This document shows, piece by piece, positions 8,723 to 64,000 of a DNA stretch of 64,000 nt. Under the pieces are notes generated by a model. That model searched no databases. It had not been told where the DNA came from and saw only the letters and a list, made by a program, of their open reading frames with translations. Source of the stretch: Raillietiella orientalis (taxonomy: Eukaryota); assembly GCA_036172245.1 (NCBI GenBank), contig JAYWIR010000016.1, forward strand, positions 2,976,001-3,040,000, given 5' to 3'. Numbering within the stretch: position 1 is the stretch's first letter; each line of letters begins with the position of its first letter. The position numbers and the translations under genes were made by a program.

Positions 8723-8913
8723 GCTGAAGCCGTAGGGCCGCTACGCGAATCTGAAAGGATGAAAAAACTCACACAGGGAAGGCAGGGAAGGTGACCACGG
8801 CGGATGACACCACGACACGCAGACGGACGCGCTTGAGTCGAATGGTATTCACGACGTGGAGTAGTCCGAGAGCCTTCATGGCGAGCGTTCCTTTCCGGTG
8901 TCCCATGCATTTT

Positions 8914-43900: not shown

Positions 43901-46900
43901 TTCGTCGACGGGAATCCTCTGGTCGACGATGACCACGAGCAAGGTGGGAGAGTGAAGCACTTCCCTCCTGCCCATACCCCATGTCTGTCTCAGTTGGAAT
44001 GCGTTTTGTCCCACCTCGTGCATTCCTCATGTCTGAACTCTAGTGTAAGTCACTGACCGCCTCAGGTCAGAGAATTTTCTTGCCTCCGTCAGCATACCAC
44101 GCCGGTACTAATCAGCGTTGAATGAGAACAGCTTGCCCTGCGGCGATTACCCACCCCGAACTTCTTTTCAGTTTCTCGAGAGAATCTCCTGCCGTGATTT
44201 CTCGTTCCGTCCCCGTTCCTGACCCTCCAGAAGTCCCTCTACAGACCGTTCTGTCTGACCCTTGAAAGGATGGTCTGGACCCCCATCTCTTTGGGACAGG
44301 CCAACGAGGTTTTCGTCACTGCCAACAGGAACTTTCGTCTTTTTACAGCCTCCGACCACCTCCACATACCTATGCCTTTCTAGGACGGATGGGCCGATCA
44401 GATGGTCGTCAAGACTTCTCCCATTTCCTGGCAACGCGAAGGATTTCCCTGCCTCCTCCGGTGCCTAAGGAGACCTGCTTGTTCTTCCTCACGCGCGAGG
44501 CTTTCCTGTTCTCTCCTCCTCTTCCTTCCCTCCCCCCCCCCCATCTTGCGGCGACGGCGACGGTGGCTTCCTCCTTCCCACTGGTGCCCTCTCCCTCCAG
44601 GCTCCGCAACGGAGAGGAAATCGCCTGCGGCGAGAAGACGGAGATGCTCGTGGAGCCGGATGGAACGTGCCAGCTACTCCTCAGGGACGTGCATCCCGAG
44701 GATGCCGGCCTCATCACCCTGGTTGCCAGGAACGAGTGCGGCGAGGTTCTCACCAAGTCGCTGGTTGTTGTTGAAGGTGGGCGCTCCCTGCCGCCTGACT
44801 TCCGGGGTCAATCCCAGTCCTTCGGCCAGGGTCCCAGGCCCCCCCGGAGTTCCTCGCGTTGCCGGAAGATGCCGTCTTCGTGGAAGATCAGCCCTGCAAG
44901 TTGACAGCGAGGGTCATCGGCTCTCCCCTGCCCGTCGTCGAATGGTGAGCTCTCTTCCTCCCCTCTCCCGCCCTCATCCCTTCTGAGGGGCAGGCTGAAC
45001 GGGCGAGGCACGAATCCCACGTTTTAGGAAGAAGAACGGACGATCCCTCCCTTTGAGCCAGTCGAGGATCAAGTGGGGTACCGAGAAGGATGGCCTCGCG
45101 ATCTTGGAATTCCTCGAGGCGCTCCCGTCGGACGCCGGGAGGTACTCGCTGCTAGCCCGCAACGTTGCTGGGGAGGCCGTCGCCGAGTGCAACGTCATCG
45201 TCAAGCGTAAGCTTCCTGGGGAGAAAGGGATGGCCTCCAGAAGCGTATCCTCTCCCCCTTCCTTCCTTGCAGCTCCGTCCTTCTTCCCGAAGTTTACCAA
45301 GACCCCGGAGACCGTGAAGAGCGTGGAGGGCTACCCGGCGTTGATCCGCGCGCAGGCCGTGGGCCAACCCGCGCCGGAGATCGCATGGTGAGGGTCTGTC
45401 GCGCGCGAAAGGGGGTGGGGATGGGAGTGAAGACCGCCTCCCTATTTCACCCTTTTCGTTCCTTTCCGGCATCGCAGGCTCAAGGACGAGGCTCGCATCT
45501 CCGACGGCGAGCCGGCAAAGCACAGGATCCTCTACGAGCCGGGCAGGGCAGGGGAGACGTCACTGGTCATCCTGGACTGCGCGCCGGAGGACGCCGGGAA
45601 GTACGTGTGCGTGGCTTCCAACGAGAACGGCAGGGACGTCACCCAGGGAGAGCTTGTCGTCGTAGGCAAGTAGAGGGGCGAAAGGGGAGGGGGAGTTGAG
45701 GGATGGAAGCTAAGAGGTGGAGGAAGGGAAGAAAAAGGTCGGCGATAAATGAGTAGCAAGTCGAGGGGTGGGGATGGGGAGGGAGGGAGAGAGATGGAGG
45801 TGAAGCGATGGAGGAAGAGTTGCAGAGAGACCATTCACCTTCGACATCGTTCCTCCTTTCCCTTGGGACTGTGCGTAGGCGACCCCTCACTCCCCCATCT
45901 TCATCCCTCAGGAAAGCACGACCCGTCCGCGCCTCGCTGCGAGCCGCGGTTCGAGGATCCACCGAAGGACGCGTACGTGAACGAAGGAGAGGAGCTGGTC
46001 CTGACCGCTCGGGTCTCTGGAAATCCCCTTCCCGATGCGCAGTGGACCAGGAACGGTCACCCGCTCCTGCCGGGCAAGGACGCTCTGCCGATGGTTCTCT
46101 TCGACGGAGAGAAGGTGAGTCCCCCCCTCCTCCCTCCCTCCGTCCCCCTTGCAGAGCAACACCACCTGGATCCTCCCTTTCCCTCAAGATGAGCCTGGTT
46201 GTCGGCAAGGCCACCCTGGAGGACGAAGGGACCTACGAGTGCATGCTGACCAATGACCTCGGTCAGGCTAAGAGCAAGTGCGACGTCTCCGTCAACGCGT
46301 CCAGGAAGCGTCCGTGCTTCCTCGAAGGCCTCCAGGATGTCCGACAGGTAGGCCCTACATACTCGCTCCATGTCTCAAGGACGATTTCATCATTTCCTTG
46401 CCCCCTCTCCCTCTTTCTCCCACCCCCCCTCCACTAAACCCTCCTGGAACCTCCAACTTTTCCCCTTGCAGGTGGCCGGCTTGAGCGCCAGATTCACCGG
46501 GCGCATCGTGGGCGAGCCGACCCCAAGCCTCACCTGGTTCCACGGCGGCAGACAGATCTTCCCCGACTTCCACAAGTATGAGGTGAAGCGGTTCGATGAC
46601 TTAGCAACCCTGATCGTGTACAAATGCCGTCCCTCGGACGAGGGCGAGTACAGCTGCGTGGCGACCAACGCCCACGGGAAGGACCGCAGCGGCGCTCGAC
46701 TCTTTGTGGAGCACGCGGAGTGAGTGACGAGGGGACGTGGCTCATGTGGGGGGAGGGGGGAGCAGGGGAGTAGCCGCCTCCGTCCCTACGGATGGCGACG
46801 CTCTGGTTTCGCGCCCTCTCCAGGCACACCGCGAAGCCTCCCGAGTTCCTCAAGAGGACGCTGGACTGCGAGGTGTTGCCCGGAGAAACGGGAAAGTTCA

Positions 46901-49900
46901 CCGCCTGTGTCTTCGCCGATCCGGAGCCTGAGGTGTCTTGGTACCGCGACGGAACGCTCCTGCATCCCGGGACCAAGTACCAGATGGAGAGGAACGGCCA
47001 CTTGCACCGGCTGTTCGTGAACCACGTGGATGGGAGCGACTTCGGCACGTACCGCATGGTCATCTCCAACGCCCACGGCCAAGCGGAGTGCTCCTCCAGG
47101 CTCGTGGAGGAACTGGTGCCAGGTGAGAGGGAGGCTACGCGCCAGATGAATCCCTCAACCTCGCTCCTCCTACTCGTCTCACCTTTCCTACGCGGAAGAT
47201 GAACAGGGGAAGGGGAGACCGGGCGTTCCCGCTTTCAGGAACCTCGAGCAGGAACCTGGCCGACGCGCTACCCTCGTTTCCGGGCAGGATGGGAGCGGGA
47301 AGTCCCCCGGATCCCCTGCCCCACCCGCCGTTCATCCGAAGGATGACGGACGACCACCTGATCGTCTCCTGGAGCCCGTACATCCCACCCGTTCACCTGG
47401 ACGCCCCCGTGACCTACTGCCTGGAGATGCAGGAGCTTCCTGACGGGGACTGGTTCGCCTTCAAGAAAGGTTCGGGTTCTTTCCCTCCACCTTTAACACC
47501 CTCCTCCTCCCACATCACCTTCTTCCAGGAATCAGGGGCCTGGACTACGAGATTCACAATCTCACGCCACAGAGGAACTACCGGTTCCGGGTGCGGGTGG
47601 AGAACCGGTTCGGGATCAGCGACCCGTCCCCCCACGTCACCACGTGCCGGGACAGGCTGCTTCCCGACCTGCCGAGGAGCCCCCCGGAGGAAAGGCCGAC
47701 GGGTCCGCCCTTCCGCCTTCCCCCCGGAGTCTCGTATGCCGACGCCCTGGACCAGCCGACTCACGAAAAGTACCGCCACCCTCCCGAGTACGTGAGTGGC
47801 GCCTTACCGCTCCCCCTCCTCCCACCCCCGTTTTCGTTTTCCCGTCCACTCTCCCCTTTTTCTCTCTACTCCCTCTCCGGAAAGGTTCCTGTCGCAGAGG
47901 GACGGGGTCCAGTTCGCGGTGGAAGGCCTTCCCTGCACCCTGCGGTGGTTCGTCTACGGCTGCCCTGTCCCGGAGGTGACCTGGTCCTTCGGCGAGGGTG
48001 ACCTGAAGAGCTCCTTATCTTCCTCCGCGGTGACCACCAGCTACAGCGGCAGCACGGGTCAGGCCACAGTGTATATCGACAGGTGAGGGTGCCACCTGGT
48101 CGAGGAAGGGGCGGGGAACAGGAGGGGAGCGGAAAAACAGGGGAGGGGTAGAGAAGGTGGCAGAGGAGGAAGGGAACGCCTGCTTTCTCTAACGTGCTCC
48201 TCCCCTTTCCACTTTTTCTTGCTCCACCCAAGGATGAGCCGTGAGCGCGCCGGTGGCTACCGGGCTGAGGCTGCCAACGAGCTCGGCCGGGCCTCCCAGA
48301 CCATCGACCTCCTCCTCTCCCAGCATCCACGGGTCCATGAGCGTCTCGTGGAGAAGACCGCGATGGAGCACCAGAGTGTCCGCTTCAAGTGTCGAGTGTC
48401 TGGCCTGCCGGACCCAAACGTGCAGTGGTACAGGGACTGGCAGCCCCTGGTGACGGACTCCGGGAGGGTGCAGGTACGACCGCCCCCGAGGTTGAGCGCC
48501 GCCGCTGCCGCCACCACCATTATGCTCTCTTCCTCTCCCCAGACGTTCTCCGACGGGTCAACGCACACGCTGGTGATCAGCGACGTGTCGAGGAGGGACA
48601 CTGGCCTGTACTCGTGCTCCGCACGGAACGCCGCCGGCTACGTGTCCACCTCCGCCATGCTCTTCGTCGAGGAGGAGCAGGGTGCGTGGGACTTCGCCAA
48701 CTACGTTAGGCGCTCGCCCGTGAAGCTGCGACCCGGCCTGCTCGAGGATGAGTACCTGCTGGGCGAGGAGCTGGGTCGCGGGACGCAGTCCATCGTGAGC
48801 CACGCCGTCGACCGCAGGAGCGGTGAGGGGGTGGGAAAATGCCTGAGAGGGGCTGCGGGGGGAAATGGAAACCGGGAGCTTCTCTCTCCCTTCCCCCTCG
48901 CCAGGTCGCCCCTACGCGTGCAAAGCCATGACCGCCGGGTCGGCCGACTTCTTCCGGTTCATGAGGGACGAGTTCGAGGTCATGAGCCGCCTGTCCTCTC
49001 CCTACCTGACCAGGCTTGTCGACGCTCGCGGCAGCGGCGACCACTCGATGTACTTGATCGTCGAGCTGTATCCTTTCCTGTGCTCCCGCCTGTCTCCCGC
49101 CTCTTTTCCTTGCGACGAGGGCCATCAGGTGCGAAGGAGGCAACCTGCTGGAAACCCTGACCCGCAGGTCACATGTGACCGAGAACGAGATCGCCTTCTA
49201 CGTAAAGCAGGTGCTCCTGGGGCTGGAGTACCTGCACGGCAGCGGTTACGCCCACCTAGGACTTAACGTGAGTCTTCCCTTGCCCTCTCCGCCCCCCTCA
49301 TTCCTTGAAACGGAGACTCCATCTTCGCCTTTTCAGCCAGGGGATATCCTCTTCTCGAGGTCGAACGGCCTGGAGCTCAAGCTGTCCGACTTCGGACTAT
49401 CGCGCCTCATCGACTCTGCCGACCTCAGGCGTCTGGACTACGGTAGGACCGGGGGGGGGGAGACGCGCGCATCGATGACCTTCCACGGCAAGGCTTCCCC
49501 GAGTTCGTGGCCCCGGAGACCGTGAACGGGGGGGGCGTCGGTTTCGCTGCCGACATGTGGGCAGTGGGCGTCCTATCCTACCTGCTTCTCTGCGGGACGT
49601 CCCCGTTCCGGGGAAGCAACGACAGGGAGACGCTGACCAACGTCCAAACGCGGAGATTCGCCAGGCGCGTCGAGGAGCTGACAGATCTGGGAGTGGAGGC
49701 GAGAGACTTCCTGGAGAGGCTGCTGCGCCACGATGCCTCCGAGAGGATGGACGTGCACGAGGCCCTCCTCCATCCGTGGCTGCGAAGGGCGGAAGAGGAC
49801 TTCTCGGGAAGCCGACTGATCTCCACGGACGCATACAGGACCTACTATTGTCTCTTCAGGTGCGCCTTTCTCGTCCACCCCACCCACCCCTTACTTTCGA

Positions 49901-52900
49901 GGAGGAGGAGGCGGGAGATGGGACAGAGTGAAGAGATGAAACGGGATTTTTTTTTTTTTCGTTTGTTCTTTTCACCTCCTCCTTCATCCCCCTCTTTCAT
50001 CGCAGGGAGTGGTACGACAACGCCAGCTGCAGGAGGTGGTACCGGAGGCGCCCTCTAAAAGGGGCGTTCACCCATCCGTCCTGCATGGTGTACCCGCCCG
50101 ACGAGTTCGTGTCCCACGCGAAAACTCCCCCTCCTCACCGCGCGACGAAGAGGCCGATGGCGACTCACGACTGGACGGGCTCAGCGCCCCGCCGAGAGTT
50201 CGACCACGATGTCGGAGGCAACTTCTCCTCGGACAGCCAGTGAGTGGGGAACGTCCACGGGAATAGAGGGACTCCGTGTCCGGCTCTCCTCCGCGAGCGT
50301 CCTCACCCCTCCTCCTCCCTCAGGTACCAAGGAGGTCCAGACACCATCCTGCTGCAGCTGCGGGATGTGGACTTCCCCGTGCGCATCAGGAAGTACATGA
50401 AGGTCGCCTCCCAGAGGAGTCCCTCCATGTCCGTTCGGCTGAGAGAGTACCCCTGGGACGACATGGTGAGCGGGACGCGCTCCTGACCCCCTTGCCCACT
50501 CGAGGTCGGGCAGCGCCCCCTACCCTGGCGCGCGCGACGGCGGCGCCGAGACTACTCCTCGGGGAAAATCCGGAGGCGGGCGAGCGTCGGTTTCAAGGCG
50601 CTCCTTAGCAGAGCACGCGGGACGACCTCGGAGCCTGCTCGGGGGGCGAGGGGTTCCCATCTGCTAGAAGCTCCTCCCTCCCTCCGACTTACGGCACTCT
50701 TCCGAAATTCTGGAAGCTCCTGGCCCGAGTTGAGGTCAGGGGGAGGCAGGGAGCTAAAGAGGAAGAGGACCTGCCCCCCCTTCCCCTAAGTGGGGGCACA
50801 AATCCATGCGAGTTGCAGATGCCAACCCACGGCGAGGAAGTGACCGACCGAGCGGTCACTGATGACTTTTCGCCGGGGGCAGCCACTCCAATCCCCCTTT
50901 TGCTTGCAGCCGGTGGTCTTGGAAAGAAGACGCTACACGGACGTCATGGACGAGCTGATTGAGGACGAGAAGGCGTACTACAACGAGTGTCCCCTGGAGT
51001 ACCAGTACCTGCCCAAGCGTCTGCGGCACGAGATCGGGGTCAAGTCGGACGCCATCCTAGAATGCGAGGCGGAGCACGAGCGCAGGAGGAGCGGACGGGT
51101 GCGTTCCCCGGAAACGGGGGAGGAGGAGGCGAACGCTCATCTCACGGAGCTCTCTCTCTCTTCCATTCTCCTCCAGCCTCCCTTCTTCCGCAAGAAGCTA
51201 CTGGACCAGCCTCTGTTACCCGACGGCCAGGCCGTCGAGTTCTCCTGCCTGGCGGCCGGCGACCCGGAGCCCATCGTTCAGTGGTTCAGGTGGGTGCAGC
51301 AGCAATCGGGGAGGGGGGGATGTATCCGGAATTTCCCCCCTCTTCCAGGAACAACATGCTGCTCACGGGGGAGGAATCGCAGCGCCTCAGCATCCACCGT
51401 CAGAGCACTCCAGATGGAGGCACTAGATCGGTCCTGAGGATCGAGGATGCCTGGCCGGAAGATGTGGGCTTGTACAAGGCGGTGGCCACCAACGAGAATG
51501 GGCGAACTGCATGCCAGGCCAGGTGAACACGGGAAAGGGGAGGGGGAAGGGGAAAGGATGCGAGGGTTTCCCCGCTCGTCCCTTCCCGGAAGGACCGACC
51601 GAGCACTCAACCCACCGGTCGGTGTTTTCCAGGTGCTTCCTCGGAGGCCTCCCCGACGCGCCGACCGACATCCGCTGCTCCCGCCTTCCGGGATCCCAGC
51701 TCATTCGGCTGGTCTGGGAGACGCCGCTCTCCCACGACGGGCGTCCTCCTCTTGTTACATGCTACGCCGTGGAATCGAGGTTGTCAGGTAGGAGAACCCC
51801 GTCGGGAGGGGAGGGGGAGAAAACCCCTTCTCCTATCCCCCCTTTCCCTCTCCTCCCTGGTCCTGGAGCTGAGACCTCGCTCGTCTTCGCAGGCGTCGGA
51901 GAGTGGTCGCGTCTGGCTGACAATGTCCAGTGCAACTCGTTCGTTGTCGACGCTCTCCAGAGCTGCGGAGACGGCCCCTGCCAATTCCGGATTCTGATCA
52001 GGAACCCATACGGATGGGGACCTCCCAGCGCACCCTCGGACTGCATCCAGCTCGAAGGTAAGGAAGGGGCGCGGCGACTGGGATGGCAAACGTGGCGCTG
52101 TTGAGAGAAACGACGTCCCGATATGGACCCTCCATTCGGGAGCAGACGACGGCGAGGGTACGCCTGTTCTCCCCTTGCCCACACCCTCGGACGTGGAAAC
52201 CCCGTAGCGGAGGACGCGAGCGGAGGCCCTTCTTCCTCCCCCCCTCACCTTACCTGGTCCTAGGATTGGGCCGCAGCGTCGGTTTGAGACCTTCCACGAA
52301 ACAAATCAGGTCCATATATGTCCCTTCTTTCCTTCCCTCCCTCTCTCTGCTGGGATCCCTCCACCTTCCGTGTCCTGGCCACAGAGCCCGCCGTCCTCCG
52401 AAAGAGAAGCCCCCCAGCTGCTGTTTGCTTGTAGTCCGTTGCCAGTCTTCTCGAACCGACTTCCAGAACGCGGAACAGAGATCCCAGCTCTCCCGTTCCC
52501 CTTGAATACTGAGATTTTTCGGCAACTGCTCCCAGTAGACGTCCGCGCCTGCCCTTCCTCCTTCTCCTCACCTCTCTCCCTTTCCTCCCTGCAGCCATTG
52601 GAGGGCGGTTCCTCTCCACGGGTGACCTGCGATCCCGCCCTAGTGGTTTTTTGGCAGAACTGCGCGTATTTCTCTTGGGATGAGCCGCTGCAGTGTCGCA
52701 TCAATCCTCGAGGGCTTTTCCTTCGGGTGCGCACTCGAAGTCATCCTGGTAGGTCAGAGGTGAGGAAGTAGACGATCTGCTAGCACTCGACTGTTCTTCA
52801 GCGGATTCTCCCGGCGCACTTCGTTTTGTTCCTTCCAGCTTCCATCATCTTCCCATCTTCTCCCTTCTTTCCTCTTCCCTTTGTCCACGACCCCCTAACT

Positions 52901-55501
52901 TCTAAAAATATCTTTCCATGTGGATGGGCTGCTCTCGAGAGCCCGCAGGCTCCTCCGCCCTTCCTTTTCATCCCACCTCCTCTTTATTCCTGGGCACGGG
53001 GATTTCTACACGTGAGTGAAGACACGTTTGTGGGAACGAAAATGGGGGGGGGGGCACACGCGTGCGAAGGCACACTGCGTAGCAACGGGAGTCGGGGTCC
53101 CGGCTGCACGCACTTGGGTGTAAATAGCGGGTCCGCGATCGCAGCATCACAGAGAGAGCAGCAGCATCTTCCCTAAACCTCTGCAGACGCTGGTGCCCCG
53201 GGAGAGTCCGGACCTTCGCTTGCTGAGGTTCAGCTCGTCGGCTCAGAACTCCACTGCCTGGAGGGCAGCGCTCCGCGGGCCCGGGAAGAGACTGGAACCG
53301 ACTACGCCAGGGAGACGGACCCGTTGCCTATGGAGATGGGACCTCCAGAAGGCCTGTACCGGTGGGTAGAGGAGATCTCCAGGTAAGATGCGCCTCCAGC
53401 ACGCACCAGTCGCTGACATTGCCCTCCTCCTTCCTCCCGGAGCAGAGGCCGCTTTTCGCAATTGGGGAGGTGCGTGGACTCTGCATCTGGGGCGACAGTG
53501 GCCCTCAAGCTGGTCGTCAAGGATAAGGGATCGCGCAGCTCGGAGGAGTTCGAGGGTCTCCGCCGTCTGCGCCACGAGAGGCTGGTGGACGCGGAGACCT
53601 TCCATGACCTCGGAAACGCCCACGCTTTCGTTCTTGAGGACCTGCACGGGCCTGACGTGCTTGCCTTCCTGAGTGGCCTGAGGCGGTACAGTGAAGGCAC
53701 CGTCCGGCGCATCGTGATCCAGGTGAGAAGAGAAATCGCGTTTCGCCGCCGCCACCGCCTCCGACCGACGACCTTCCCCTTCCAGGTCCTGGATGCTCTT
53801 GAGTACCTTCACTGGCAACGATTCGCCCACCTCGACGTGCAACCGGACAACGTGGTGGTCAGCAACGCCCTCTGCCCTGACGTCAAGCTGGTGGACTTGG
53901 GGAACGCGCGGAAACTGAGCTGGCCCGAGAGAGTGGACGGCGTCGTCGGATGCCTGGACTACCTCGGTAATTCCGTGCTCATCCAATAAGCACTTCGAGA
54001 GGCGCCGCCACTCCTCACCGGGAGGATGCGAGCACCCTTTATCTCCCACCTCGTCCTGGAAATCGCGTCCCGCCAGCCACCCTCTTTCATGTCCCCCCTC
54101 GGGCATGCCGTGGTATGCGGCAAGTTGCCTCCCTCTGCTTCTGTCAGCCTTCCCGAGCCACGGTTTTGGAAGCCACATCACCCTTAAGGTCAAGACGTGG
54201 CATCCTCGGAGCCCGGAGGTGTGGACGTCCCAGCCATCCTCTAGACTCCGGTTCTCTCCTCAACGTCCGTTCGCCTTTCCCTCCCCATTCGGGTCACCGT
54301 GTATCCTTATCCCTTTCGAGCTGCGACCCTAGATGCTTCTCTGCGCCTGCCCTAACCTTAAGGATGGAAGGTCGAAAGCCTTCATCCTCGCTCCTCCCTC
54401 CCATCGCTTCTCGGCCTTTTGGCTAAGATCAGAGTCTAGTCTCCGGGCAACCAGGGACTACCGCTTCTCCAAGGGGAGAGATCCTTTCCGTCCTTGCAGC
54501 TCTTTTGTCTGATACGCAGTCTGGAGGAAGAGAGGAAGGGAGTCCCATAAGGGAGTCTCATTCAACTTCCGCTCTCCAAGGAGCACGCAGGAGGGAGGCC
54601 TCGACGAGGGCCAAGGGAATTCTTCCTGCATCTTTGATAGGATCCTTGACATTCCTTTGCACCTGGAGTCGTAGCCAGGGGGGAAGGGGCAAAATTTCCC
54701 TCCCCTCTATCTGATGGACTGCTAATTTTCTGCACCCCTTCTCCACTTCTTACTGTCTCGCCCGGCAGCTCCCGAGATCTTCAGCGGCGAACCCGTCAGC
54801 TGCTCTGCAGACATCTGGAGCTTGGGGGTTCTGTGCTACGTCCTGCTCTCAGGGACCCCCCCGTTCCGCGGGCAGGTCCCGGAGGAGACCAGGCAGAACG
54901 TCATCTACGTCCGCTACCTCTTCGACGCGCTCTACGCTGACCTCAGCCCGGAGGCCGTCAAGTTCCTGATGGCAGTCTTCAAGAGAAGCCCCAGGTGAGC
55001 GACGGCCCCTCCCCTGCCTGGAAACTGACCATCCTTCCCCTCTCTCTCTCCCACCAGCAAGAGACCGACAGCGACGCAGTGCCTCGAGAGCAGATGGCTG
55101 TCGCTGCAGCACTCCGACGTCTTGGCGAGGAAGGCCGAGGGAACTTTCTTCAGCACTGACAGGATCAAGGTGAGGGATTTCGGGATGAGGGACGGGCCGA
55201 TGGCAACAGGAAGGAAAGGAATCATGGAGGAGAGTGGGGAGGAAGAAGCTCCCGGAAGGAAAATGCCCGTTGCTGATCCTCCTCTACTCTACCTTACCTC
55301 CCCCCCCTTTCTTCCTAGCTTTCCTTCCCGCTGGGATCTGCCCTGAATCTGGAACGACCCGTTGCTTGATTCGCACCATCCTAATTACTCATCCTGCTCA
55401 CGCCGTCCCTGTTCTTCCAGGTGTACTCCGAGGAATACCATGAGGACAGAAAGAGGCGTGCCGGAGACGTGGGACGTTTGTTCACCGTTCTCCAGAGGTG
55501 A
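22952..55501 (+). CDS. Unc-89: Obscurin / muscle M-line assembly protein Unc-89, about 68 coding exons: Ser-rich N-terminus, RhoGEF DH-PH, about 18 Ig, FN3, 2 Ig, kinase 1, Ig, FN3, kinase 2
   Basis: A phase-consistent exon chain runs from MSLSARSYHSSYSEMRKE (22952-23006) to VYSEEYH...FTVLQR-TGA (55421-55501). Diagnostic segments: ELIETEEEFC, ERFKVLY.EEENTLALIFQHV..EDAGLYTCVA, ELGRGTQ, WY.NASCRRWYRRRPL.GAFTHPS, YQ.GPDT.LLQLRD.DFPVR. The first five exons and the small exon at 52108-52157 are less certain than the rest. Confidence 0.93.
27680..30808 (+). other. Obscurin RhoGEF (DH) and PH domain exons
   Basis: ALVKELIETEEEFCHDL...LFGNL...GRTFLRL...LPIQRLNDYQFLLKEL (DH), then GKLLRQ...LLFRGRILVCK...KRSWVDQM (PH). 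Confidence 0.9.
33324..34138. repeat. Diverged direct repeat of about 110-115 bp (33324-33434 and 34024-34138) in an obscurin intron
   Basis: Shared ACAGACCGAGGAGGA...TACCGC.GATGGGGG...GATTCCTCCGTCATCCGGTC.AGCCGT...CAAACTCCAC; the copies start 700 bp apart. Confidence 0.85.
37890..37948. repeat. (GGA)n trinucleotide repeat, about 19-20 units, intronic
   Basis: Read directly from the sequence. Confidence 0.95.
38757..38879. promoter_or_regulatory. Candidate intronic enhancer: six ACAAT/ATTGT motifs (Sox or DMRT/Dsx type)
   Basis: AACAATG 38759, GATTGTT 38771, GACAATG 38785, CATTGTT 38836, CATTGTT 38848, AACAATG 38873. Confidence 0.45.
45666..45911 (+). other. GC-AG intron in obscurin
   Basis: GTAG|GCAAGT is the local donor giving the phase 1 needed by CTCAG|GAAAG (ELVVV-G-KHDP); the GT 4 nt upstream is phase 0. 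Confidence 0.75.
48750..49795 (+). other. Obscurin kinase domain 1 (pseudokinase-type catalytic loop HLGLN)
   Basis: YLLGEELGRGTQ, YACK, HLGLNPGDI, SDFG, PEFVAPE, DMWAVG, HPWL. Confidence 0.88.
49068..49128 (+). other. U12-type (minor spliceosome) GT-AG intron, 61 nt
   Basis: 5' site GTATCCTTT; branch-like TTTTCCTTGCGAC ending 12 nt before the end of the intron; no polypyrimidine tract after it. Removal restores IVEL-CEGGNLL. Confidence 0.8.
53357..55100 (+). other. Obscurin kinase domain 2
   Basis: EISRGRFS, VALK, HLDVQPDN, VDLG, YLAPE, DIWSLG, KRPTATQCL..RWL. Confidence 0.88.
54403..54516 (+). ncRNA. U2 snRNA-derived element (variant or pseudogene) with an insert of about 45 nt, inside obscurin intron 53967-54768
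   Basis: ATCGCTTCTCGGCCTTTTGGCTAAGATCA matches the recalled U2 5' end exactly (29 nt). GAGTCTAGT follows in place of AAGTGTAGT. After the insert, CAG...TCTGATACG resembles stem IIa. No canonical Sm site at the expected spacing. Confidence 0.75.
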
Positions 55502-55728
55502 CCCGCCTGCCATCTTGCTACGGTCTCTGCGCGTGGAAGTGGTGCGAATTTCAGAGGGAAGACGAAGAAGGACGTCCGGCTTCGTGCGTCCGCAAGGTCT
55601 CAGGTGCCCGAAGAGGCCAGCAGAAGCGACGCTGCTTGCATTAACACAGGGCGTGCTGTGACCTTTTACCTTTCTAACGCGCTTCAAAGGGGAAAAAAAA
55701 GAAAAAAGAAAAAAAACAACTGCTCCCA

Positions 55729-55734
55729 AATAAA
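55729..55734 (+). terminator. Polyadenylation signal of obscurin
   Basis: AATAAA about 230 nt after the stop codon. Confidence 0.55.
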
Positions 55735-58128
55735 GTTCAGGAAACTTTGTCCGCCTGGAGTATCTGGGGGAGTCCATCTTGACCCGCGGACATTATCCTG
55801 CCCCCATCTGCAGCATCTTTTGACTGCAAGGATAATTTGCCGAAATCCCGGCAGAAAACAATGAAGCGCCGCGCTATCCATGAGGAGAGGCAGTCTGCAC
55901 AGCCATGTCAACCGGAGGTCAGAGCCAAGGATGGGTGGTGGAGACGTTGCCGTCCGCCAACTGTCCGATGCCTCCGCGTGCAGACGCCTCCTTCGCCAAT
56001 CGTCACGCGAAGTCCGCCCGCATCCCTGTACCAGCAGGGAGATCCTTTCACGTTTGCGTTTCTGGAAACGGCAACACAGCGCACTGAGGGAAAGAACACC
56101 CTCTCGGATTGCCCGAGGGTGCTTCCTGTAGATCGTCTGCAACTCCCTCCCATTTTCCCCTTTCAGTGGCACTATGGTCGGTGCATCTTCTGTGGGAGAT
56201 GCCTCTCGCTGCTTCCTAGACCATCCACCGGAACGAAACCGACGCGCCCCATGGAGAAGGGGTGGCCAGGAAGATTCTGCCCTCGAGCGATTCTAGCAAC
56301 TCAGGAGTTTACGCTTATCCAGGGATTGCAGTGTTTCTTGAGCACCTCAACATCAAGGACCCATCGTTCTACGGAGGGGAGCGGTAGTGCGCTTTTGAAG
56401 GACACCCCACTGCTCCCTCCTTAAACTTTGGGAACGAAAGAAGGAGATGAACAGCAGTCCACTGCTCCAACTGGGAAACTGGGAAACGCATGGAGACTGA
56501 GCTGGCTCGAGGGAAGACGGCGTCGTTGGACACCTGCTTTCTCAGCGTGTTGCGTAGGCAACACACGGAGAGAACAGAAAGAAGCTCCAGTGCTTGGACT
56601 CGCCTGGCAGCTCCAGGATACAGCTTTCTCTGTATTGTCCGACGGCGGCACTAGAGCGCTACTCTTCAGACTGTTCAAATTTCTCCTGAGCAGAGGCTGC
56701 AGGAGGCGGTTACCTCTCGAGTGTCTTCCTCTCCGTAGACCCAAGGACGTTGGACAAAGGTTTCATCTTCGTTTCAGTCTCAGGTACCCCCTCTGGTCCC
56801 TGCCAAGGACCACCGGTTTTCTCAGAGTTTCTAGAATGCCCTTTCAAGGATGGAAATGAAAGGGATGAGGAAGAGGTTTGTCTCTTTCCGAAGACAACCT
56901 TAACTTCTCGGGGTCTGGGCGGCTCTAAAAAGGGACGCCCGTCCAGGAGGCTTACCACAAATGTCCGTGGCACGTCCGGGAGACATGCCGCGGACACGGA
57001 AAGATCTCTCCCCCAGCTTCCACTTCGCGGGAACAAAGCTGATACGCAATGAATGTGATAAGCGAGGGATCTGTCCACCGGTCATCAGCGACCGCATAGG
57101 AGATTCCGTGGCGAAATCCTCCCCTTCCCCCTCTCTTCCTTCTTCCCTCCAGTGGTGAGGGAATTTTCGAAAATACGTAGGGATCACGGTTGCACCTTCC
57201 CAAGTTTCCCCTCTTCGTAGGTCGCTTCGCTTCAGCTGCGCATGTGTTTGATACGAGCTGCCATTTGTTGTTTTCGTCATCTCGAGGACAGAAGAAATGT
57301 TTCAAGAAAGCACTGGTCTTTCGGAGCACGAGGTTCTTTCCCTCCTCTCTCCTCCCACTTTTCCTCTCGCCCAGGTGGAAGCGCTGGAAACGAGCAGGAA
57401 ATGTCGCTGCTGCTGCCATCTGGAGAGCAAATGGAAACGGTGGAAAAGGAGCGGAAAAGGGACAGCATGAAGATCCTGGACTCAGGAATCACAATAAAGA
57501 TGTTACAAGAAAGCAGGATAAAGATTCTGCGGCAGCTTTTCGTCGTAGAACAACCGGACCAACCAGGAGGCGGGGCAGCGAGGAGAAACAGAAGAGGAAA
57601 AGCTGACGAAGATACGAAGCAGCGCAGCAGCATTCTGAAGAACGGGAAACACAGAGAGAACGACTCTCGTGAGCACGCCTTGAGTTCCACCGGCTGGAAG
57701 CTGCGGAGTTCGATCTGAGAAGCACGTGGAACTCGGCTCCGCCGACGCCGTCGGCGACATAGGCAATGACGACGACGGCGTCTCCCAAGCGACCTGAGCA
57801 GCTTCGGAACCGGGACTCCGTTCTGCTCCTTCCCTTCCCTCCACGGGCCCACAATCCTCGGAGGATCATCTTCCTGTCGAAACTTCTAGCCTGCCGCTTC
57901 TCCTCCCTCCCCTCCAGGCACTCCCGAAACTTCGTGCCTGGAGAAAGAGAGAAAGGAATATGAATAGAGTAGTAAGAGAAAGGGGAGTTAGCGTGCTCGG
58001 TCCCTCCCCAGTGGGCCTTCTTTCCTCCTCTTCTTCTTGGTTCTTCCCCCTTCTTTCCAGCTCCCTCCTTCCGGAGGCGGCTTCCCGGGGCGAGGAAACA
58101 GCTCGATACCCACGCGTCTGAAGTGCGG

Positions 58129-58136
58129 TATAAAAG
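58129..58136 (+). promoter_or_regulatory. TATA box of the allatotropin gene
   Basis: TATAAAAG 86 nt upstream of an ATG in strong Kozak context (CACCATGG). Confidence 0.7.
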
Positions 58137-58214
58137 TCCCGTTCTAAGAGAGTCTCTGCCTCCATCCTGTGCGATCTCGCCTTTCTCTCCTCCTCCGGTA
58201 GTGGCGGCAGCACC

Positions 58215-58387
58215 ATGGCGACGAAGAGGATCATCATCGTGGCGACGGCGGCGGTGGTGGTCTGGGCGTGTCTAACTCTAGGAGAACGTGAGGGGACCCC
58301 GCCCAACAGAAGGGGCTTCAAGACTTCTTCCCTGTCGACGGCCAGAGGATTCGGGAAGAGGGCACATCACGCAGAGGAGGTCATCAG
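58215..58387 (+). CDS. AT: Allatotropin neuropeptide precursor, first coding exon; mature peptide GFKTSSLSTARGF-amide (58314-58352)
   Basis: Hydrophobic signal peptide, RR cleavage site, GFKxxxLSTARGF, GKR amidation/cleavage signal. Likely donor CAG|GTACTG at 58387/8; the unspliced ORF stops at 58460. Confidence 0.9.
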
Positions 58388-60660
58388 GTACTGCACGCGC
58401 ACCCCCACCCCTCGATTCCCACTAAACGATGGCAGCGGCCATCTCTGCTGCTACTGCTGATGCTCTTCCCCATACGGAATGCTTCCGTCCGATAGACCAG
58501 CCAGCAGCAGCAGTGGCACTCATGCGCTCCCCTGGCATGACTGTCTTCTCCTTGTGGCTGCAGAGACAGCACCAAGTCCATACCTTCCGCCAATGCCGGG
58601 ATGGGATAGGGAAAAGGAGTAGGCTCGTTCCTATTAACTTTCGTGAAGAATGAAAGAAGGGAATGGGAAAGAATGATTCTGTCCCTTTGGACCCGTGGCA
58701 CTTCGGCTCTCCTCTTTCCTTCTACAGAAAAAGGGAGGCCGAAGTTCTCCAGCGACGACGAATCCTTTCCCAAGTAAAAGGGAGGGGAACAGAATGAGTG
58801 GGATGCCACACATAGGCATGTCACCTAGGGGGTTGCGGGAAGCCCAGTCAATATCCCACCTTTAAGTGGGGAGGAGGGTACCCTTGGGGGAAAAGAACTC
58901 GCGCTAGAAACCCCCCGTTGGTACCCACCCTTGCTTTTCAACATCCGTTAGGCCTGTCGTATTTCTCATGGATTCACTCCAACATTGCGTACGCCGACCA
59001 CAATTCCTTTCTACTCCTCCCCCCGTTCCCACCGTGGTGTCTCCCTTCCTCCTAGTCCTTTCTGATTGGCCTCCTACTGTGTTCCAGGAGCCTCGGTGAT
59101 CTTGGTGCGGGTCTGTTCCCTTCGTCTTCCCTACTGATGAAGCTGAGCCGGCTAGACAACGCTGACGATGAGGAAAGAAAAGTCCTGTGGATGCCATAGT
59201 GCGGGAAAGGCTTCCCGTATGTGACGGTGGCGAAACTACAGACCACGTTTTAAGAGGTGTTTTGTCAATGCGGCCACTTTTGGCTTCAGTATATGAAGGG
59301 AGCTGGGAAGGTGGGTGGGAAGGGAAAGGGAAGCGGGGAAGGAAGATCCACCACCCTCGCTAGTTACCACCCTTCTTCGATTCCATCTTGATCACTCTGA
59401 ATGAATTCGTCATTACAAAAACCTCAGGACTCGCCCCTTCCCTTCCGCTTGCTTCAGAGGCAGTCTAAGAGGGGACAAGCTTGTTTGTCAATCTGCAGTT
59501 CCTCTTGCTACTCTCCCTAGGTAGGCAAGGATACTAGTGATGGTGGGGGTGGGAGCAGGGCAGCAGAGAAGGAGGCAGTGCACCAGCTACTGAGAGCATC
59601 CTTTGCAGTGCCATACTTCCAGCTCACCATTTCCAGGAACAAAACAAGTCCACATCAGTGAGGCAGTAGCACAAAATGCTGGAGATTCCAAGCACTCCTC
59701 CCACCAGAAAGGAGGAAAAGAGGGGAGGGGTGAGGGAAACAAGTCAACAAAAAGAAAAATACTGGCACAAAGAAAATGAAGCAAACACCCAGTTTCCCCT
59801 ACCAAGTTACCATGCAGTGCCCATCAGCAGCCACCATCATCCACTAGTACAGAGATGGCAATTAGCAAGAGCAGAGAGATATTTCCACATATCCTCCCCC
59901 TCCCCCCTGACACCTTTGAGACAATCCTGGAGATGCAGTAGAAATAGCATCTTTACAGCAGTGCTCCCCGGCAGACACTCCACAATCAATTCAGTTTCTG
60001 AAACCTTGGATCCCAATCCCACAGAAGCTTTCCCGAAGGCTCCTGAAATGAGGGATTTGTGTGCTTCTTAAATGAAGCTGGCACACTGCACATGTATATT
60101 CCAGTGAATCTCTTGTACTTTGGACTTGGAACTCGCCACCTGCACCTATGTGTCAATGTGACTGGAAACTGCGAAGGAAAACAAATGGAACTAAAGATCC
60201 TAATTTTTGAAAGCCACAGCTTCTCGATTAAAACAACATTCCTGGAAACCAATCAAAAAAAATGTTTGAAACCGAAGTCATTAATAAATGCTATTTCAAT
60301 TGATGGGAATCAAATGGAAACCAAATTTTGCAAAACATGCACACTCTGATGACTGCAACTTTTATAATTGGTTGCAACTGGATACATCAATAAAATTCCG
60401 ATGCTTAGAACAAGCAAATAAAGTTAATGAGATCGAAGAATTACAAACACAGATGTCTGACTTCAGCCGTGTAATTACTTGACTGTAACAAATACTTTGG
60501 TTTGAAAATTTGCCTTTGAACTAGTTCTTACAGCAAAACACTTACAATTCTAAAATCCATAGCATGAGATTGTCTACTCAACCATGTTTGCCAAATTTTA
60601 TAGGATCACTGAGGAATCAACAATTTATCCCATTTACCCAGGAACTGCAGCTTTAAGTTT

Positions 60661-63600
60661 TTACAAAGCTACTCTTGGAATGGCTCCGGAGAATTCCCGC
60701 GATTGTTGTTTTCCCCCTGTCCTTCCCGTTCTTTGCTCGAATCCTTCCGGAGGGAGATCATTATCCAGATCATCGGGTTGGGTTTCGTCTTTCCTTCTTA
60801 CGTGGGTTGCATATATGCTACTTGAATAATACCGGATCCAGGTGGCTACCATCCGTTGCCTTAGCTCCGCAAGCTTCTTTTTTGGTATTCCTAGGTATTG
60901 CAGTACCTCTTCGTTTCCAGGAGGATCCCATGCTCCCAGTGAGCAGACAATGATCGCATGCACTTTGGGGAGTGTTTCCCACTGTTTCCGGGTTGCATTA
61001 CGATATCTTGGTATTTTCCTTCTTCGGCTTTCCTAGCTGTAGTGAACGTCTCCTTTCCACTTTCGTATGGGCAGGAGATGTCCAGCACACTCATTCGGTC
61101 CCTTTTCTCTAAAAACCGGGTCCGGTTCGAGGCCAGAGGTGGTTCCTGGTAGTCTGCGATTGCTTCACAAAAGACCCCACTTCGCTTCATCCGCTGCGGC
61201 CTTTCTGATGATTTCCTGAATGACATCAGGCCGCTGCATCGTCAGAGGGACGTGCTTCTCGCATCTATTTAATACGTGGGATGGCGTTTCGTCCTCCGTC
61301 CCGCAACGCCGACATATACTCTTTCGTGTCCTTTTTTGGTTGACCCAGAGTTGACTGGAAGTTGAGTCTTGCAGCATGGATGGATGAACTTGTAGTCCTA
61401 GAATCTGAAGTGGATTCCGTTTGTATGGAAGAAGCTTGAAGAGTGATGCATGCCCACACGCTGCATGGCCTTCCCTTGACTAACGTGGTTTTCAATGAGG
61501 GATTGCCACGCGTGTTGTGCAATGTGCAATGGAGAGGATATGTGCAATGCTCTCACGCCGGAGGGAAGCCCTCTTCTTGTACTGCTGGCGAAGATTACGC
61601 CGTCAACCGTTATACGGGGTTCTCCTTGTTGAACTCCCAACGGACTTGAATTCTCCTAGAGGCCTTCCTTCCTTTCGACCAGAGGCTCTCAATATCCCAT
61701 CTGGGCTTTGCGGTCTTCATGCCCGTCATGAATTCCCCGAGATTCTCATCTGTCGGTACTTCATGGTTACATTATTAGACGATTTCCTCCGGGGTCTCTC
61801 TTGTGCTAACTTTCTTACCGCTTTGCCTGGAGACGTAAGCAGCTTGAAGCATCTGTCCATGATGAAGAGGTCGGATTCTCCAGCTAGGTTCATTAGTCCT
61901 ACGCAGCCTTTGCTCCTGGTAGGTGTAAGGCCTTTTTTATTTTCTTCCTGACTTCTTCGCCAACATGATGCATTCCCCTTTTCGGTGAGTTCCCAGCCTC
62001 TCGTAATGAACTAGCCTGGAGTAGAAGGTTTTCAATGCGTCCATCTTATGCCATCCTGAGAGTACACTCTCAAGTATGGCACTCGCGTTCTGGCAGATGT
62101 CTTCCATAGTCGGTTGCATGTGGAAGACCTTCATGCCGAAGGGTTTTCCCAAGTATTTGCGTGCCTGCGATAAGGCAATACAAGAAAGATAAATAAGAAA
62201 GCAGTTCGATATTACGAACCTTCTCATCGTTTATACGGTTCCTTGTAATAGTTTCAAGGCGAAATCGGATCAGCTTCCCATGTACCGATTTTGTAAAGGT
62301 CTTGGCGCAGAACTGCATAGCCGGAAAGGAAACTGGATTGCTTGACACTCATGTTGACCTCTGTCCCGTCATTTCTGTGCACCCAATTTGAGAAGCTGGC
62401 GCTTGGAGCTACACGCCCAAAGACTAAGGTCCGAAAAAGGAAACCCTCTGAGAATCTGAACTTTGCTTCGAAGGTTCCGCCCATCCATTCGGCTATCCCT
62501 GTTCATCCACGTTTCAGTTGCGATGGTTTCACGCAGACCACAGCCCTGCCTGCCCTGTTCCCCTTAGAGCTCACTCTCCAGTATGGCACTCGCCTTCTGG
62601 CAGATGTCATCCTTGGATAGTTGTGTATTGAATACCTTAACACCAAAGAATTTTCCCAAGTACTTGTATGCTTGTGATAAGGCAATACAAGGGATTTTCC
62701 CTTCCTTCACCTGGCTTTCCACGTTCCTTGTACCTTTCGGAATTCTCCCGCTGTACAATATTGAGGCGCATTTCGCCGCGTTGATGGATAAGCCAGCTTG
62801 CTCGACTAATTTCTGGAAAGGTACTATCATTTCTTCGACTCTCGCTTCGTCCTTTCCCAGTATAACGATATCGTCGGCGTAAGCTAGTATCAGTCGTCCC
62901 CATAGTTATGTCTCATTGAGCGCAGGCTCAATGAGACATAACTATGGGGCTCTATTGAGATGATAAATAGGAATGAGTTTAAGGGACATCCCTGCTTCAC
63001 TACGCGCCGCACGGAGAAGGTCCTCGTTTCTGTCTTTTCCAAGGTGAAACTTCCTGTGTATACTTCTTCAATGATATCTATTATGTTTTCTCCTGCCCCT
63101 GCTTCCTTCGACCAGCGATGTGCAGCATCCAATCTTGTTGTAAGATGAAATTCTGTTCTAGCACTCCATCAAAGGGCAGGAAGCCCTTCTGTTGGGTGCC
63201 ATGATCTCGTTTTCCAGAATCCATCTTCTGATTCGGGAGGCTAAGCATTTGGCATACAACCTATAGGCACTGTTGCTAATGGATATTGGCCTCCAGCTGG
63301 AGATGTCATCTGCTGCTGTGGGGTTCTTCGCTATGAGTACCGCTCTGGTACACCTCCACTCTTCTGGAATTCGACGAAACCTTTTTAGAATATTAAAAAT
63401 TATTGTGAGCATTTCGGCCTCTGGATCAATGCTCTTCCATCCAGCGTACGTAATTCCATCTTCTCCGGGGGATGAATTTTCCGCACTCCGCAGTATCGCC
63501 GCTACCTCCTTTTGAGTAAATGGAGATAGGTCTAAGGGGGATGCTGCTTGGGCTCTTCCTAGCAGTATCTTCTTGGGAATCTCTTTATCTGCTTCCTGTT

Positions 63601-64000
63601 TTATCTCCAGCTCATTCCGAAAATGCCTTTTAACCTTGTCAACTTCTAACTTACAGGTCGGGTCCTGCTGACCTAAAATCGCTCTAACTGCTCTTCTCCT
63701 ACTGACGTTGTAAAGTTTTTGGATTGACGATCTGTTGCTCGGGTCAATCCTTGGTTTCTTCCTGCCTTCCTTTCCGCTTTTACTTTGAGTACCTCCTGGA
63801 TTTTAACTTTCACCCTTTGATACATCAGAAGTCCTCCCAACGAGGCCTTTCTTCATCCAGGATCCTCTGGAGATGAATTCGCTCCTCTCTGAACTTTGAG
63901 GAGTAGTTCGCTCTCCATGTCCACTTTCCTGCCGTGCCTTTCGGTTTTCGTGTCTTTGTATGGCTTCCATTTTACTCGTTCCTTCTGGAGGTTCTTGTTT
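60661..64000 (-). mobile_element. Degenerate non-LTR retrotransposon with restriction-like endonuclease (Utopia/NeSL-like); probably continues past the window edge
   Basis: IQKLYNVSRRRAVR, SSPGEDGITY..WK..DP, WRPISI, KQGCPL, LAYADD (about 62870-62887), YKYLG, CCHC knuckle CRRCGTEDETPSHVLNRC, VLDISCPYE..K..KY, IIVCSLGAWDP. Many frameshifts, and RT subdomain 3 appears deleted. Confidence 0.88.

Follow-up and report, generated by a model that had tools for sequence, protein, structure and literature searches.

Chimeric retrocopies, in which a small nuclear RNA (snRNA) is joined to other sequence, and U2-derived heads on SINEU and Tx1 elements have both been published (PMC4494074, excerpts). The chimeric snRNA retrocopies are ascribed to template switching by a LINE reverse transcriptase (Buzdin 2002 and Garcia-Perez 2007, as given in PMC4494074); those that appear in the excerpted text are mammalian and driven by L1. 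They begin with an snRNA, mostly full-length (U6), continue with an unrelated 3′ part and an A-end, and lie between target-site duplications; they are dead on arrival. Among retroposons, SINEU-1J and SINEU-1F have short 5′ U2-derived heads and Tx1-11_Crp has a U2 head (Kojima 2015, PMC4494074), and the account of SINEU-1 in the same excerpts speaks of “recurrent addition of U2-derived sequence” and of partial duplications. Two further elements, Utopia (NeSL clade, RLE) and Keno (Tx1 clade, APE), cut U2 genes at nt 38|39 (Kojima & Jurka 2015, PMC4640811, excerpts). Tailless snRNA retropseudogenes (Schmitz 2004, as given in PMC4494074; Noll 2015, PMC5322556) are 3′-truncated U2 copies dispersed by LINEs, in which the truncated RNA stands alone between target-site duplications.

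The locus described here lies in a 64-kb window (the whole stretch of DNA that was analysed) and had been proposed in an initial annotation to be either a U2 pseudogene or an intron-encoded U2 variant or decoy. We find that 54403-54696 is probably a dead, U2-headed chimera of 294 bp, retro-inserted as an ordinary by-product of reverse transcription.

The U2 head and the sequence that follows it

The features of the locus, all on the + strand, are as follows.

53967..54766, +, host intron (GT..AG, 800 nt), between a kinase-2 exon ending in GCLDYL and a kinase-2 exon beginning with APEIFSGEP
54361..54388, +, GAAA-capped hairpin in the 5′ flank (−12.4 kcal/mol, z −3.74, 0 of 200 shuffles as good)
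54395..54402, +, left candidate target-site duplication, TCCCTCCC (direct repeat), adjoining U2 base 1 at 54403
54403..54443, +, U2 snRNA head, model positions 1-40 (5′ end, stem-loop I and altered branch-site region; cmscan, RF00004)
54437..54460, +, junction fold-back hairpin, TAGTCTCCGG / CCAGGGACTA with loop GCAA (−11.5 kcal/mol, z −2.81, 1 of 200 shuffles as good)
54444..54690, +, non-U2 body, with no Rfam or Pfam assignment and a GC skew that differs from the flanks
54456..54474, +, internal direct repeat, copy 1, ACTACCGCTTCTCCAAGG (local alignment)
54564..54581, +, internal direct repeat, copy 2, ACTTCCGCTCTCCAAGG (local alignment; direct-repeat search)
54691..54696, +, short tail AAAATT, holding the only A-run of at least four bases in 54403-54770 (regex scan)
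54697..54704, +, right candidate target-site duplication, TCCCTCCC (direct repeat, control scan)

The host gene is obscurin/UNC-89-like and encodes a giant muscle protein; the intron interrupts its second kinase domain, and the insert is in sense orientation to the gene. Both exons next to the intron match Pkinase in Pfam (53417-53986 at 1e-17 and 54726-54995 at 9.2e-10). Searches with the kinase-2 exon returned no homologous proteins of greater length at E ≤ 1e-10 and, in the ESM Atlas, generic kinase clusters only. The host gene is arthropod-like in look.

The near-perfect match to the U2 5′ end that had been noticed from the letters alone stands: 54403-54431 is an exact 29-mer, identical to consensus positions 1-29, which has this single match in the window when up to 3 mismatches are allowed and which occurs in none of 100 shuffles. 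In the cmscan alignment the similarity extends over 54403-54443 and U2 positions 1-40; two bases are substituted and one is inserted. Stem-loop I is predicted in the computed folds. The Rfam search that the annotation had proposed thus does give a match at the locus, but its 32.1 bits lie below the gathering score of 46 (E = 2.2e-4 in 1.2 kb and 0.0037 in 20 kb with the Rfam U2 model), a score that is reached by nothing in the whole window. The head had also been called arthropod, a label that we drop, as 40 bases cannot separate arthropod U2 from that of any other animal.

The alignment bears out the reported CTAGTC in place of GTAGTA in the branch-site-pairing region: U2's branch-point recognition sequence GUAGUA reads CUAGUC here and is preceded by an extra G. 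Nucleotides 1-29 of the head carry no change and the next 11 carry three (hypergeometric p 0.017, calculated by hand), and this packing of the changes into the last 11 nt agrees with errors close to the junction of a young insert and not with the slow decay of a whole U2. The similarity stops at model position 38-40, at most 2 nt from nt 38|39.

Beyond this point nothing of U2 was recovered. The cmscan alignment skips U2 model positions ~47-185; scanned alone, 54441-54770 gives no U2 match at E ≤ 10, and body 54444-54690 gives no other credible Rfam match at the same threshold. Stem-loops IIa/IIb, III and IV are absent from the insert in the Rfam U2 scans, and the same model finds no U2 3′ part within 10 kb to either side. 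The Sm site consensus is A-U4-6-G with purines on either side; a regex scan of 54403-54770 for an Sm-like A-U(3-7)-G found none. The earlier statement that U2-like sequence resumes within the element is contradicted by the empty U2 scan of 54441-54770 at E ≤ 10, by which TCTGATACG and TCCGTCC are likewise ruled out as resumed U2; the two motifs that had been cited for it also come in the wrong order for U2. Since there is no U2 match downstream and no Sm site, what had been called a decayed 3′ part is foreign sequence, not decayed U2. The hint of selection, which rested on the contrast between a near-perfect 5′ end and decay further 3′, fails with it: the 3′ sequence is simply not U2.

The origin of the body was sought in several ways. 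Pfam searches of six open reading frames (ORFs) across the element gave nothing at E ≤ 0.001 and no remnant of a reverse transcriptase or endonuclease; with the threshold relaxed to E ≤ 10, the one weak line on these ORFs, DUF2461 at E 0.061, was taken as noise. The 36 minus-strand ORFs likewise hold no reverse-transcriptase or LINE remnant by Pfam, the only domains being LRR at 4.5-8.7 kb. A blastn search of 54201-54800 against the 64-kb window returned the query itself, the next best hit being 20 nt long (E 0.11), and the number of look-alikes of the insert among the other scanned DNA windows was 0. An exact 22-mer from the junction and another from the body had 0 matches each in metagenome contigs, which is weak evidence as this collection is not expected to include the organism. 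Within the body, the two copies of the internal repeat are identical in 17 of 18 columns with one gap, a score that 1 of 500 shuffles reached. A repeat of the U2 5′ end had been reported as well: CGCTTCTC does recur, at 54462, yet its score is attained in 30 of 500 shuffles and is borderline.

Insert boundaries, composition and folding

One copy of the 8-bp TCCCTCCC abuts U2 base 1 on its 5′ side, and a second comes straight after the only A-run in 54403-54770. Of 63,292 control positions, 23 show this arrangement of repeat and A-run, as do 8 of 2,906 when the control is confined to all-pyrimidine 8-mers; four or more A followed within 0-3 bases by TCCCTCCC is found at one place only in the window, the 3′ end of the insert. 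The repeat is of low complexity, with 24 occurrences in the window and 3 in the host intron, and the duplication is therefore only moderately strong as evidence; the 3′ boundary was, moreover, picked after the repeat had been seen. The A-run itself is 4 bases long and is followed by TT. A direct-repeat search found no repeat of the upstream flank after 54443, where the U2 head ends; the repeat lies 250 nt further on. The composition changes over the same interval: on either side of the insert the intron has a GC skew of −0.2 to −0.45, against 0 to +0.22 in 54480-54680.

Two of the hairpins described in the initial annotation are present. The fold-back hairpin with the GCAA loop (z −2.81, 1 of 200 shuffles) brings the last bases of the U2 head into pairing with the first of the body and appears in both the minimum free energy (MFE) and the centroid folds. 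The GAAA-capped hairpin that precedes the element (z −3.74, 0 of 200 shuffles) also appears in the MFE fold of a 340-nt stretch; it sits outside the left target-site duplication and so is not part of the insert. Both stretches (54361-54388 and 54437-54460) were chosen for their hairpin look, which makes these z-scores flattering. The other two hairpins fare worse. TCTCC-AAGG-GGAGA is no better than chance (z −1.06, 28 of 200 shuffles), and the hairpin likened to the U1A/U2B″ loop has a z of −0.56 (53 of 200 shuffles) and is missing from the 340-nt MFE fold; its TTGCAC loop was rejected as a U2B″ site on the same z of −0.56. The 118-nt core folds like its shuffles (z −0.51, 60 of 200 as good) and the 340-nt stretch somewhat better than most of its own (z −2.08, 3 of 100 as good). 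With a junction hairpin that beats 199 of 200 shuffles and the 340-nt z of −2.08, the insert may hold some structure. One speculation is that the U2 end was copied in inverted form, by a small snap-back, to give the 3′ arm of the junction hairpin; the reverse complement of this arm has just 5-6 bases in common with the branch-site region.

Origin of the insert

With the extent of U2, the lack of every later U2 feature, the repeat with its A-run and the break in composition all observed, we propose the following course of events. The insert would be made up of the first 38-40 nt of U2 snRNA, an unrelated non-coding stretch of ~250 nt and a vestigial A-run, and a non-LTR (LINE-type) reverse transcriptase would have pasted this chimera into a C/T-rich stretch of the intron, duplicating 8 bp. 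The head could have been acquired by either of two routes: (a) the RNA may have been the transcript of a U2 gene in which a Utopia- or Keno-type retrotransposon already sat at nt 38|39, and would then start with U2 1-38, or (b) the reverse transcriptase may have switched template onto U2 snRNA at its single-stranded branch-site region. How the head was acquired is what we infer, and we favour neither route. Judged by its sequence, the element would have no function as U2 and would be a passive passenger in an intron of the host pre-mRNA. The pseudogene option of the initial annotation thereby survives in modified form, as a U2 5′ fragment fused to non-U2 sequence.

The insert resembles the chimeric snRNA retrocopies in its 5′ snRNA part, unrelated 3′ part, target-site duplication and, perhaps, its A-end (AAAATT). 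It differs from those in the excerpts of PMC4494074 in that it carries U2 nt 1-40 only, and in its 4-A tail, its C/T-tract target in place of the TT/AAAA site of L1-type retrocopies and a 3′ part for which Pfam, Rfam, the window and the other scanned DNA windows gave no match. With the tailless retropseudogenes it shares a 3′-truncated U2, but it has 250 nt of other sequence inside the duplications. Its head of U2 1-38, the break within the branch-site recognition sequence and the foreign sequence that follows are like the 5′ junctions of Utopia and Keno; unlike these elements as they appear in the excerpts, the insert has no reverse-transcriptase or endonuclease remnant, lacks U2 nt 39 onward and is not in a U2 gene. 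Arthropod Utopia, moreover, makes no target-site duplication (PMC4640811, excerpts), so the 8-bp duplication found here is unlike an insertion by Utopia’s own endonuclease.

Of the alternatives, the one that fares best refines the chimera explanation without contradicting it. The insert could be one copy of a multi-copy family of U2-headed, non-autonomous retroposons similar to SINEU, in which a master copy with the head-body junction was amplified by a Tx1- or Utopia-type LINE. The snRNA head, non-LINE body, putative A-end and length below 500 bp fit the description of SINEU in the excerpts of PMC4494074. The weak second unit at 54462-54483, which runs from CGCTTCTC to GATC, and the internal 18-nt repeat recall the head-like units and partial duplications of SINEU-1, and the C/T tract at the insertion site recalls the (TTCC)n or (TC)n favoured by some Tx1 groups. 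SINEU, however, is reported in these excerpts from crocodilians only, with thousands of copies of a common structure, whereas a single copy is known here. The blastn search found no second copy in 64 kb, no look-alike turned up among the other scanned DNA windows, the two 22-mers went unmatched in the metagenome contigs (a weak objection, as noted), and the second U2-like unit is neither significant against shuffles (30 of 500) nor matched by the Rfam U2 model. We therefore regard a LINE-mobilised (Tx1- or Utopia-type) SINEU-like family in this non-crocodilian, apparently arthropod genome as unlikely, while giving it more weight than any of the readings that follow.

Much less probable is that the locus is what is left, in situ, of a U2 gene or full-length pseudogene into which a U2-targeting retrotransposon jumped at nt 38|39, most of this element and of the 3′ part of U2 having later been deleted. 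The break in U2 does fall at the site used by Utopia and Keno (PMC4640811, excerpts), but the 3′ part of the interrupted gene is not found within 10 kb on either side and the six frames hold no Pfam-detectable remnant of a reverse transcriptase or endonuclease. The whole unit is, furthermore, bounded by the target-site duplication and the A-run, and an 800-nt intron within a conserved kinase domain is an unlikely home for a U2 gene.

We give still less credence to a U2 pseudogene that was once full-length and has lost its 3′ three quarters to decay or replacement. Short motifs are common to the body and U2 (TCCGTCC, TTGCAG and TCTGATACG), but their order differs from that in U2, cmscan of 54441-54770 finds no match at E ≤ 10, and 0 changes in 29 nt set against no similarity over 150 nt are incompatible with uniform decay.

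Least credible of all is the variant or decoy of the initial annotation, a functional intron-encoded RNA, or the intron itself, that would still pair with U6 through the U2 5′ end while its recognition of the branch site was masked or altered: the perfect 29-nt 5′ end with stem-loop I, the sense orientation within the pre-mRNA, the predicted junction hairpin that sequesters the altered branch-site region (z −2.81) and the fold of the 340-nt stretch (z −2.08) speak for it, but the match falls short of the Rfam gathering score, the locus shows the marks of a retro-insert, the 118-nt core folds like its shuffles, and the perfect 5′ end is explained by a young insert without selection. With its altered branch-site sequence and neither an Sm site nor stem-loops IIa to IV, the RNA would moreover have no apparent route to snRNP assembly. 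Compared with genuine U2 snRNA (RF00004), the 5′ end and stem-loop I are the same and everything else is missing or altered.

The retro-inserted chimera, our preferred explanation, removes a false lead, that of a U2 variant with altered branch-site recognition, and the locus by itself matters little. The insert looks like a further case of a known type, the snRNA-headed retrocopy, and not like a new kind of U2. If a SINEU-like family did exist here, snRNA-headed short retroposons would be a recurrent invention and not a crocodilian oddity. A U2 copy that is perfect at its 5′ end and absent at its 3′ end carries the signature of a chimera, not of selection.

U2 snRNA head and insert boundaries

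The first 29 bases of the segment at 54403–54443 are identical to the U2 snRNA 5′ end. This 29-mer has no other match at up to three mismatches in the 64-kb window, and 0 of 100 shuffles yielded one. The search with cmscan (Rfam 15) aligned the whole segment, the U2 head, to U2 model positions 1–40, from the 5′ end through stem-loop I and across the branch-site recognition region, and passed over model positions ~47 to 185. At 32.1 bits the match falls short of the family's gathering threshold, 46 bits; E was 2.2e-4 when 1.2 kb was searched and 0.0037 for 20 kb. Across the window, no Rfam family attained its gathering score. The head carries one inserted G and two substitutions relative to the model, with GUAGUA changed to CUAGUC, in agreement with the U2-like start with an altered branch-site sequence reported in the initial annotation. 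All three differences are found within the last 11 of the 40 positions and none in the first 29 (hypergeometric p 0.017, hand calculation), a clustering consistent with error near the junction of a young insert.

The octamer TCCCTCCC abuts U2 base 1, and its second copy comes straight after AAAATT, the only A-run of at least four bases in 54403–54770. As a control, the left 8-mer of each window position was examined for recurrence 100–600 bases downstream, at most 3 bases after an A-run of at least 4. This arrangement was met at 23 of 63,292 window positions and, among all-pyrimidine 8-mers, at 8 of 2,906. Because TCCCTCCC is frequent (24 occurrences in the window, three of them in the host intron), the direct repeat is moderately strong evidence of insertion, not proof. 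GC skew ranges from −0.2 to −0.45 upstream in the intron, from −0.30 to −0.35 downstream, and from 0 to +0.22 within 54480–54680. Given the flanking repeat, the A-run and the agreeing composition, we read 54403–54696 as one insertion composed of a U2 head, a non-U2 body and a short A-end between two duplication copies.

Features of the insertion and its host gene (window coordinates)
30400–55000, + strand: obscurin/UNC-89-like gene, second half of the window (Pfam domain series)
49.1–50.1 kb, + strand: kinase 1, after fn3 (Pfam)
53.4–55.0 kb, + strand: kinase 2, end of the domain series (Pfam)
54395–54402: left copy of the candidate target-site duplication, TCCCTCCC, adjoining U2 base 1
54403–54443: U2 head, aligned by cmscan to U2 model positions 1–40
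54403–54696: read as a single insertion, 294 bp, between the duplication copies
54697–54704: right copy of the candidate target-site duplication, TCCCTCCC, directly after AAAATT

Host gene and surroundings

The host gene is obscurin/UNC-89-like. Pfam on 122 plus-strand ORFs gave its domain series, which starts with an SOS1/NGEF-type PH domain at ~30.6 kb and continues through a long run of I-set exons (about a dozen), fn3, kinase 1, and a further Ig and fn3-like exon to kinase 2. Among solved structures, kinase 1 is closest to PDB chain 8ak2 (1.3e-28), labelled Obscurin and representing the Drosophila protein; kinase 2 is a divergent DAPK/MLCK/titin-type domain. The insert is in sense orientation within GT..AG intron 53967–54766, which divides kinase 2 between ...GCLDYL and APEIFSGEP. 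Many Ig domains of the gene are divided between two exons.

The window has a GC content of 58.8% and 433 stop-free stretches of at least 90 codons; the length of an ORF is no sign of a gene in this sequence. Minus-strand leucine-rich-repeat ORFs at 4485–8740 (LRR_8, 3.7e-35 at 7796–8740 and 1.6e-06 at 4485–5330) apparently belong to another gene, located upstream of the obscurin-like one. The mir-549 model matched the 48 bases at 62900–62947 with 30.4 bits on both strands, far below its gathering score of 93, and the identity of the two scores indicates a near-perfect palindrome or hairpin-forming repeat.

Sequence and folding downstream of the U2 head

U2-like sequence had been thought to resume 3′ of the interruption. 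Searched alone with permissive filters, 54441–54770 returned no U2 match at E ≤ 10; the five RNA-family matches listed were all noise (12–16 bits), leaving no RNA-family signal at a credible level in this region. The U2 3′ part was not found anywhere across 44000–64000, an Sm-like A-U(3–7)-G motif is absent from 54403–54770, and the motifs taken for resumed U2 are short and do not follow the order of U2. Together, these observations show that U2 and the element have only the first 40 bases in common. No second copy of the body was found within the window, and its six frames gave a lone protein-family line at E 0.061 and otherwise no signal. Two 22-mers, from the junction and the body, had no match in an exact scan of metagenome contigs. 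A search of an index of scanned windows gave no look-alike. The body carries a tandem 13-mer duplication at 54536–54561 (AAGGGAGTCCCAT / AAGGGAGTCTCAT, 12/13 identical).

Two proposed hairpins were recovered, with z-scores inflated by the selection of these segments for their hairpin looks: the fold-back over the altered branch-site region (54437–54460, GCAA loop; −11.5 kcal/mol, z −2.81, 1/200 shuffles) and the GAAA-capped hairpin at 54361–54388 (−12.4 kcal/mol, z −3.74, 0/200). The latter is host-intron sequence just upstream of the left target-site duplication, outside the U2-headed unit. Neither the TCTCC/GGAGA hairpin (z −1.06, 28/200) nor the one likened to the U1A/U2B″ loop (z −0.56, 53/200) exceeds chance level. 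The fold of the 118-nt core (54403–54520) matches its shuffles (z −0.51, 60/200), and that of the full 340 nt has z −2.08 (3/100). CGCTTCTC, reported as repeated from the U2 5′ end, gave a borderline match, its score being reached in 30/500 shuffles; another internal direct repeat of 18 nt (54456–54474 and 54564–54581; 1/500) is firmer.

Origin and classification of the insert

The snRNA retrocopies described in PMC4494074 include tailless 3′-truncated pseudogenes, A-tailed copies, and template-switch chimeras with LINE, SINE or mRNA 3′ parts; U1 or U2 heads are borne there by crocodilian SINEU families (snRNA-headed short retroposons) and by some LINEs of the Tx1 group. According to PMC4640811, Utopia and Keno, unrelated retrotransposon lineages, break U2 genes at one common site, with U2 nt 1–38 upstream and nt 39 onward downstream of the insertion; the U2 likeness in our insert stops at position 38–40. 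Two routes are compatible with the insert: RNA could have initiated from a U2 promoter whose gene had earlier been broken by a Utopia/Keno-type element, or a reverse transcriptase could have jumped template onto U2 snRNA at the single-stranded branch-site region. Since arthropod Utopia is said to make no target-site duplication (PMC4640811), whereas the insert has one of 8 bp in a C/T tract, this does not look like insertion by arthropod Utopia itself. TC-rich repeats are favoured by some Tx1 groups (PMC4494074), and the duplication may reflect another LINE machinery.

That the insert is a functional U2 variant or decoy, as the initial annotation had entertained, is very improbable: although it lies in sense orientation within pre-mRNA, retains the U6-pairing 5′ end of U2 and has a junction hairpin better than 199/200 shuffles, the defining U2 features past stem-loop I (gathering score, GUAGUA, Sm site, stem-loops II to IV) all fail, and a perfect 5′ end would call for no selection in a young insert whose remainder was never U2.

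In the literature covered (PMC4494074, with mentions in PMC5786205 and PMC4758252), SINEU is described exclusively from crocodilians. That the insert belongs to a SINEU-like family outside this group is rather unlikely. The 54403–54696 unit is most likely a chimeric snRNA-headed retrocopy, a kind already known.
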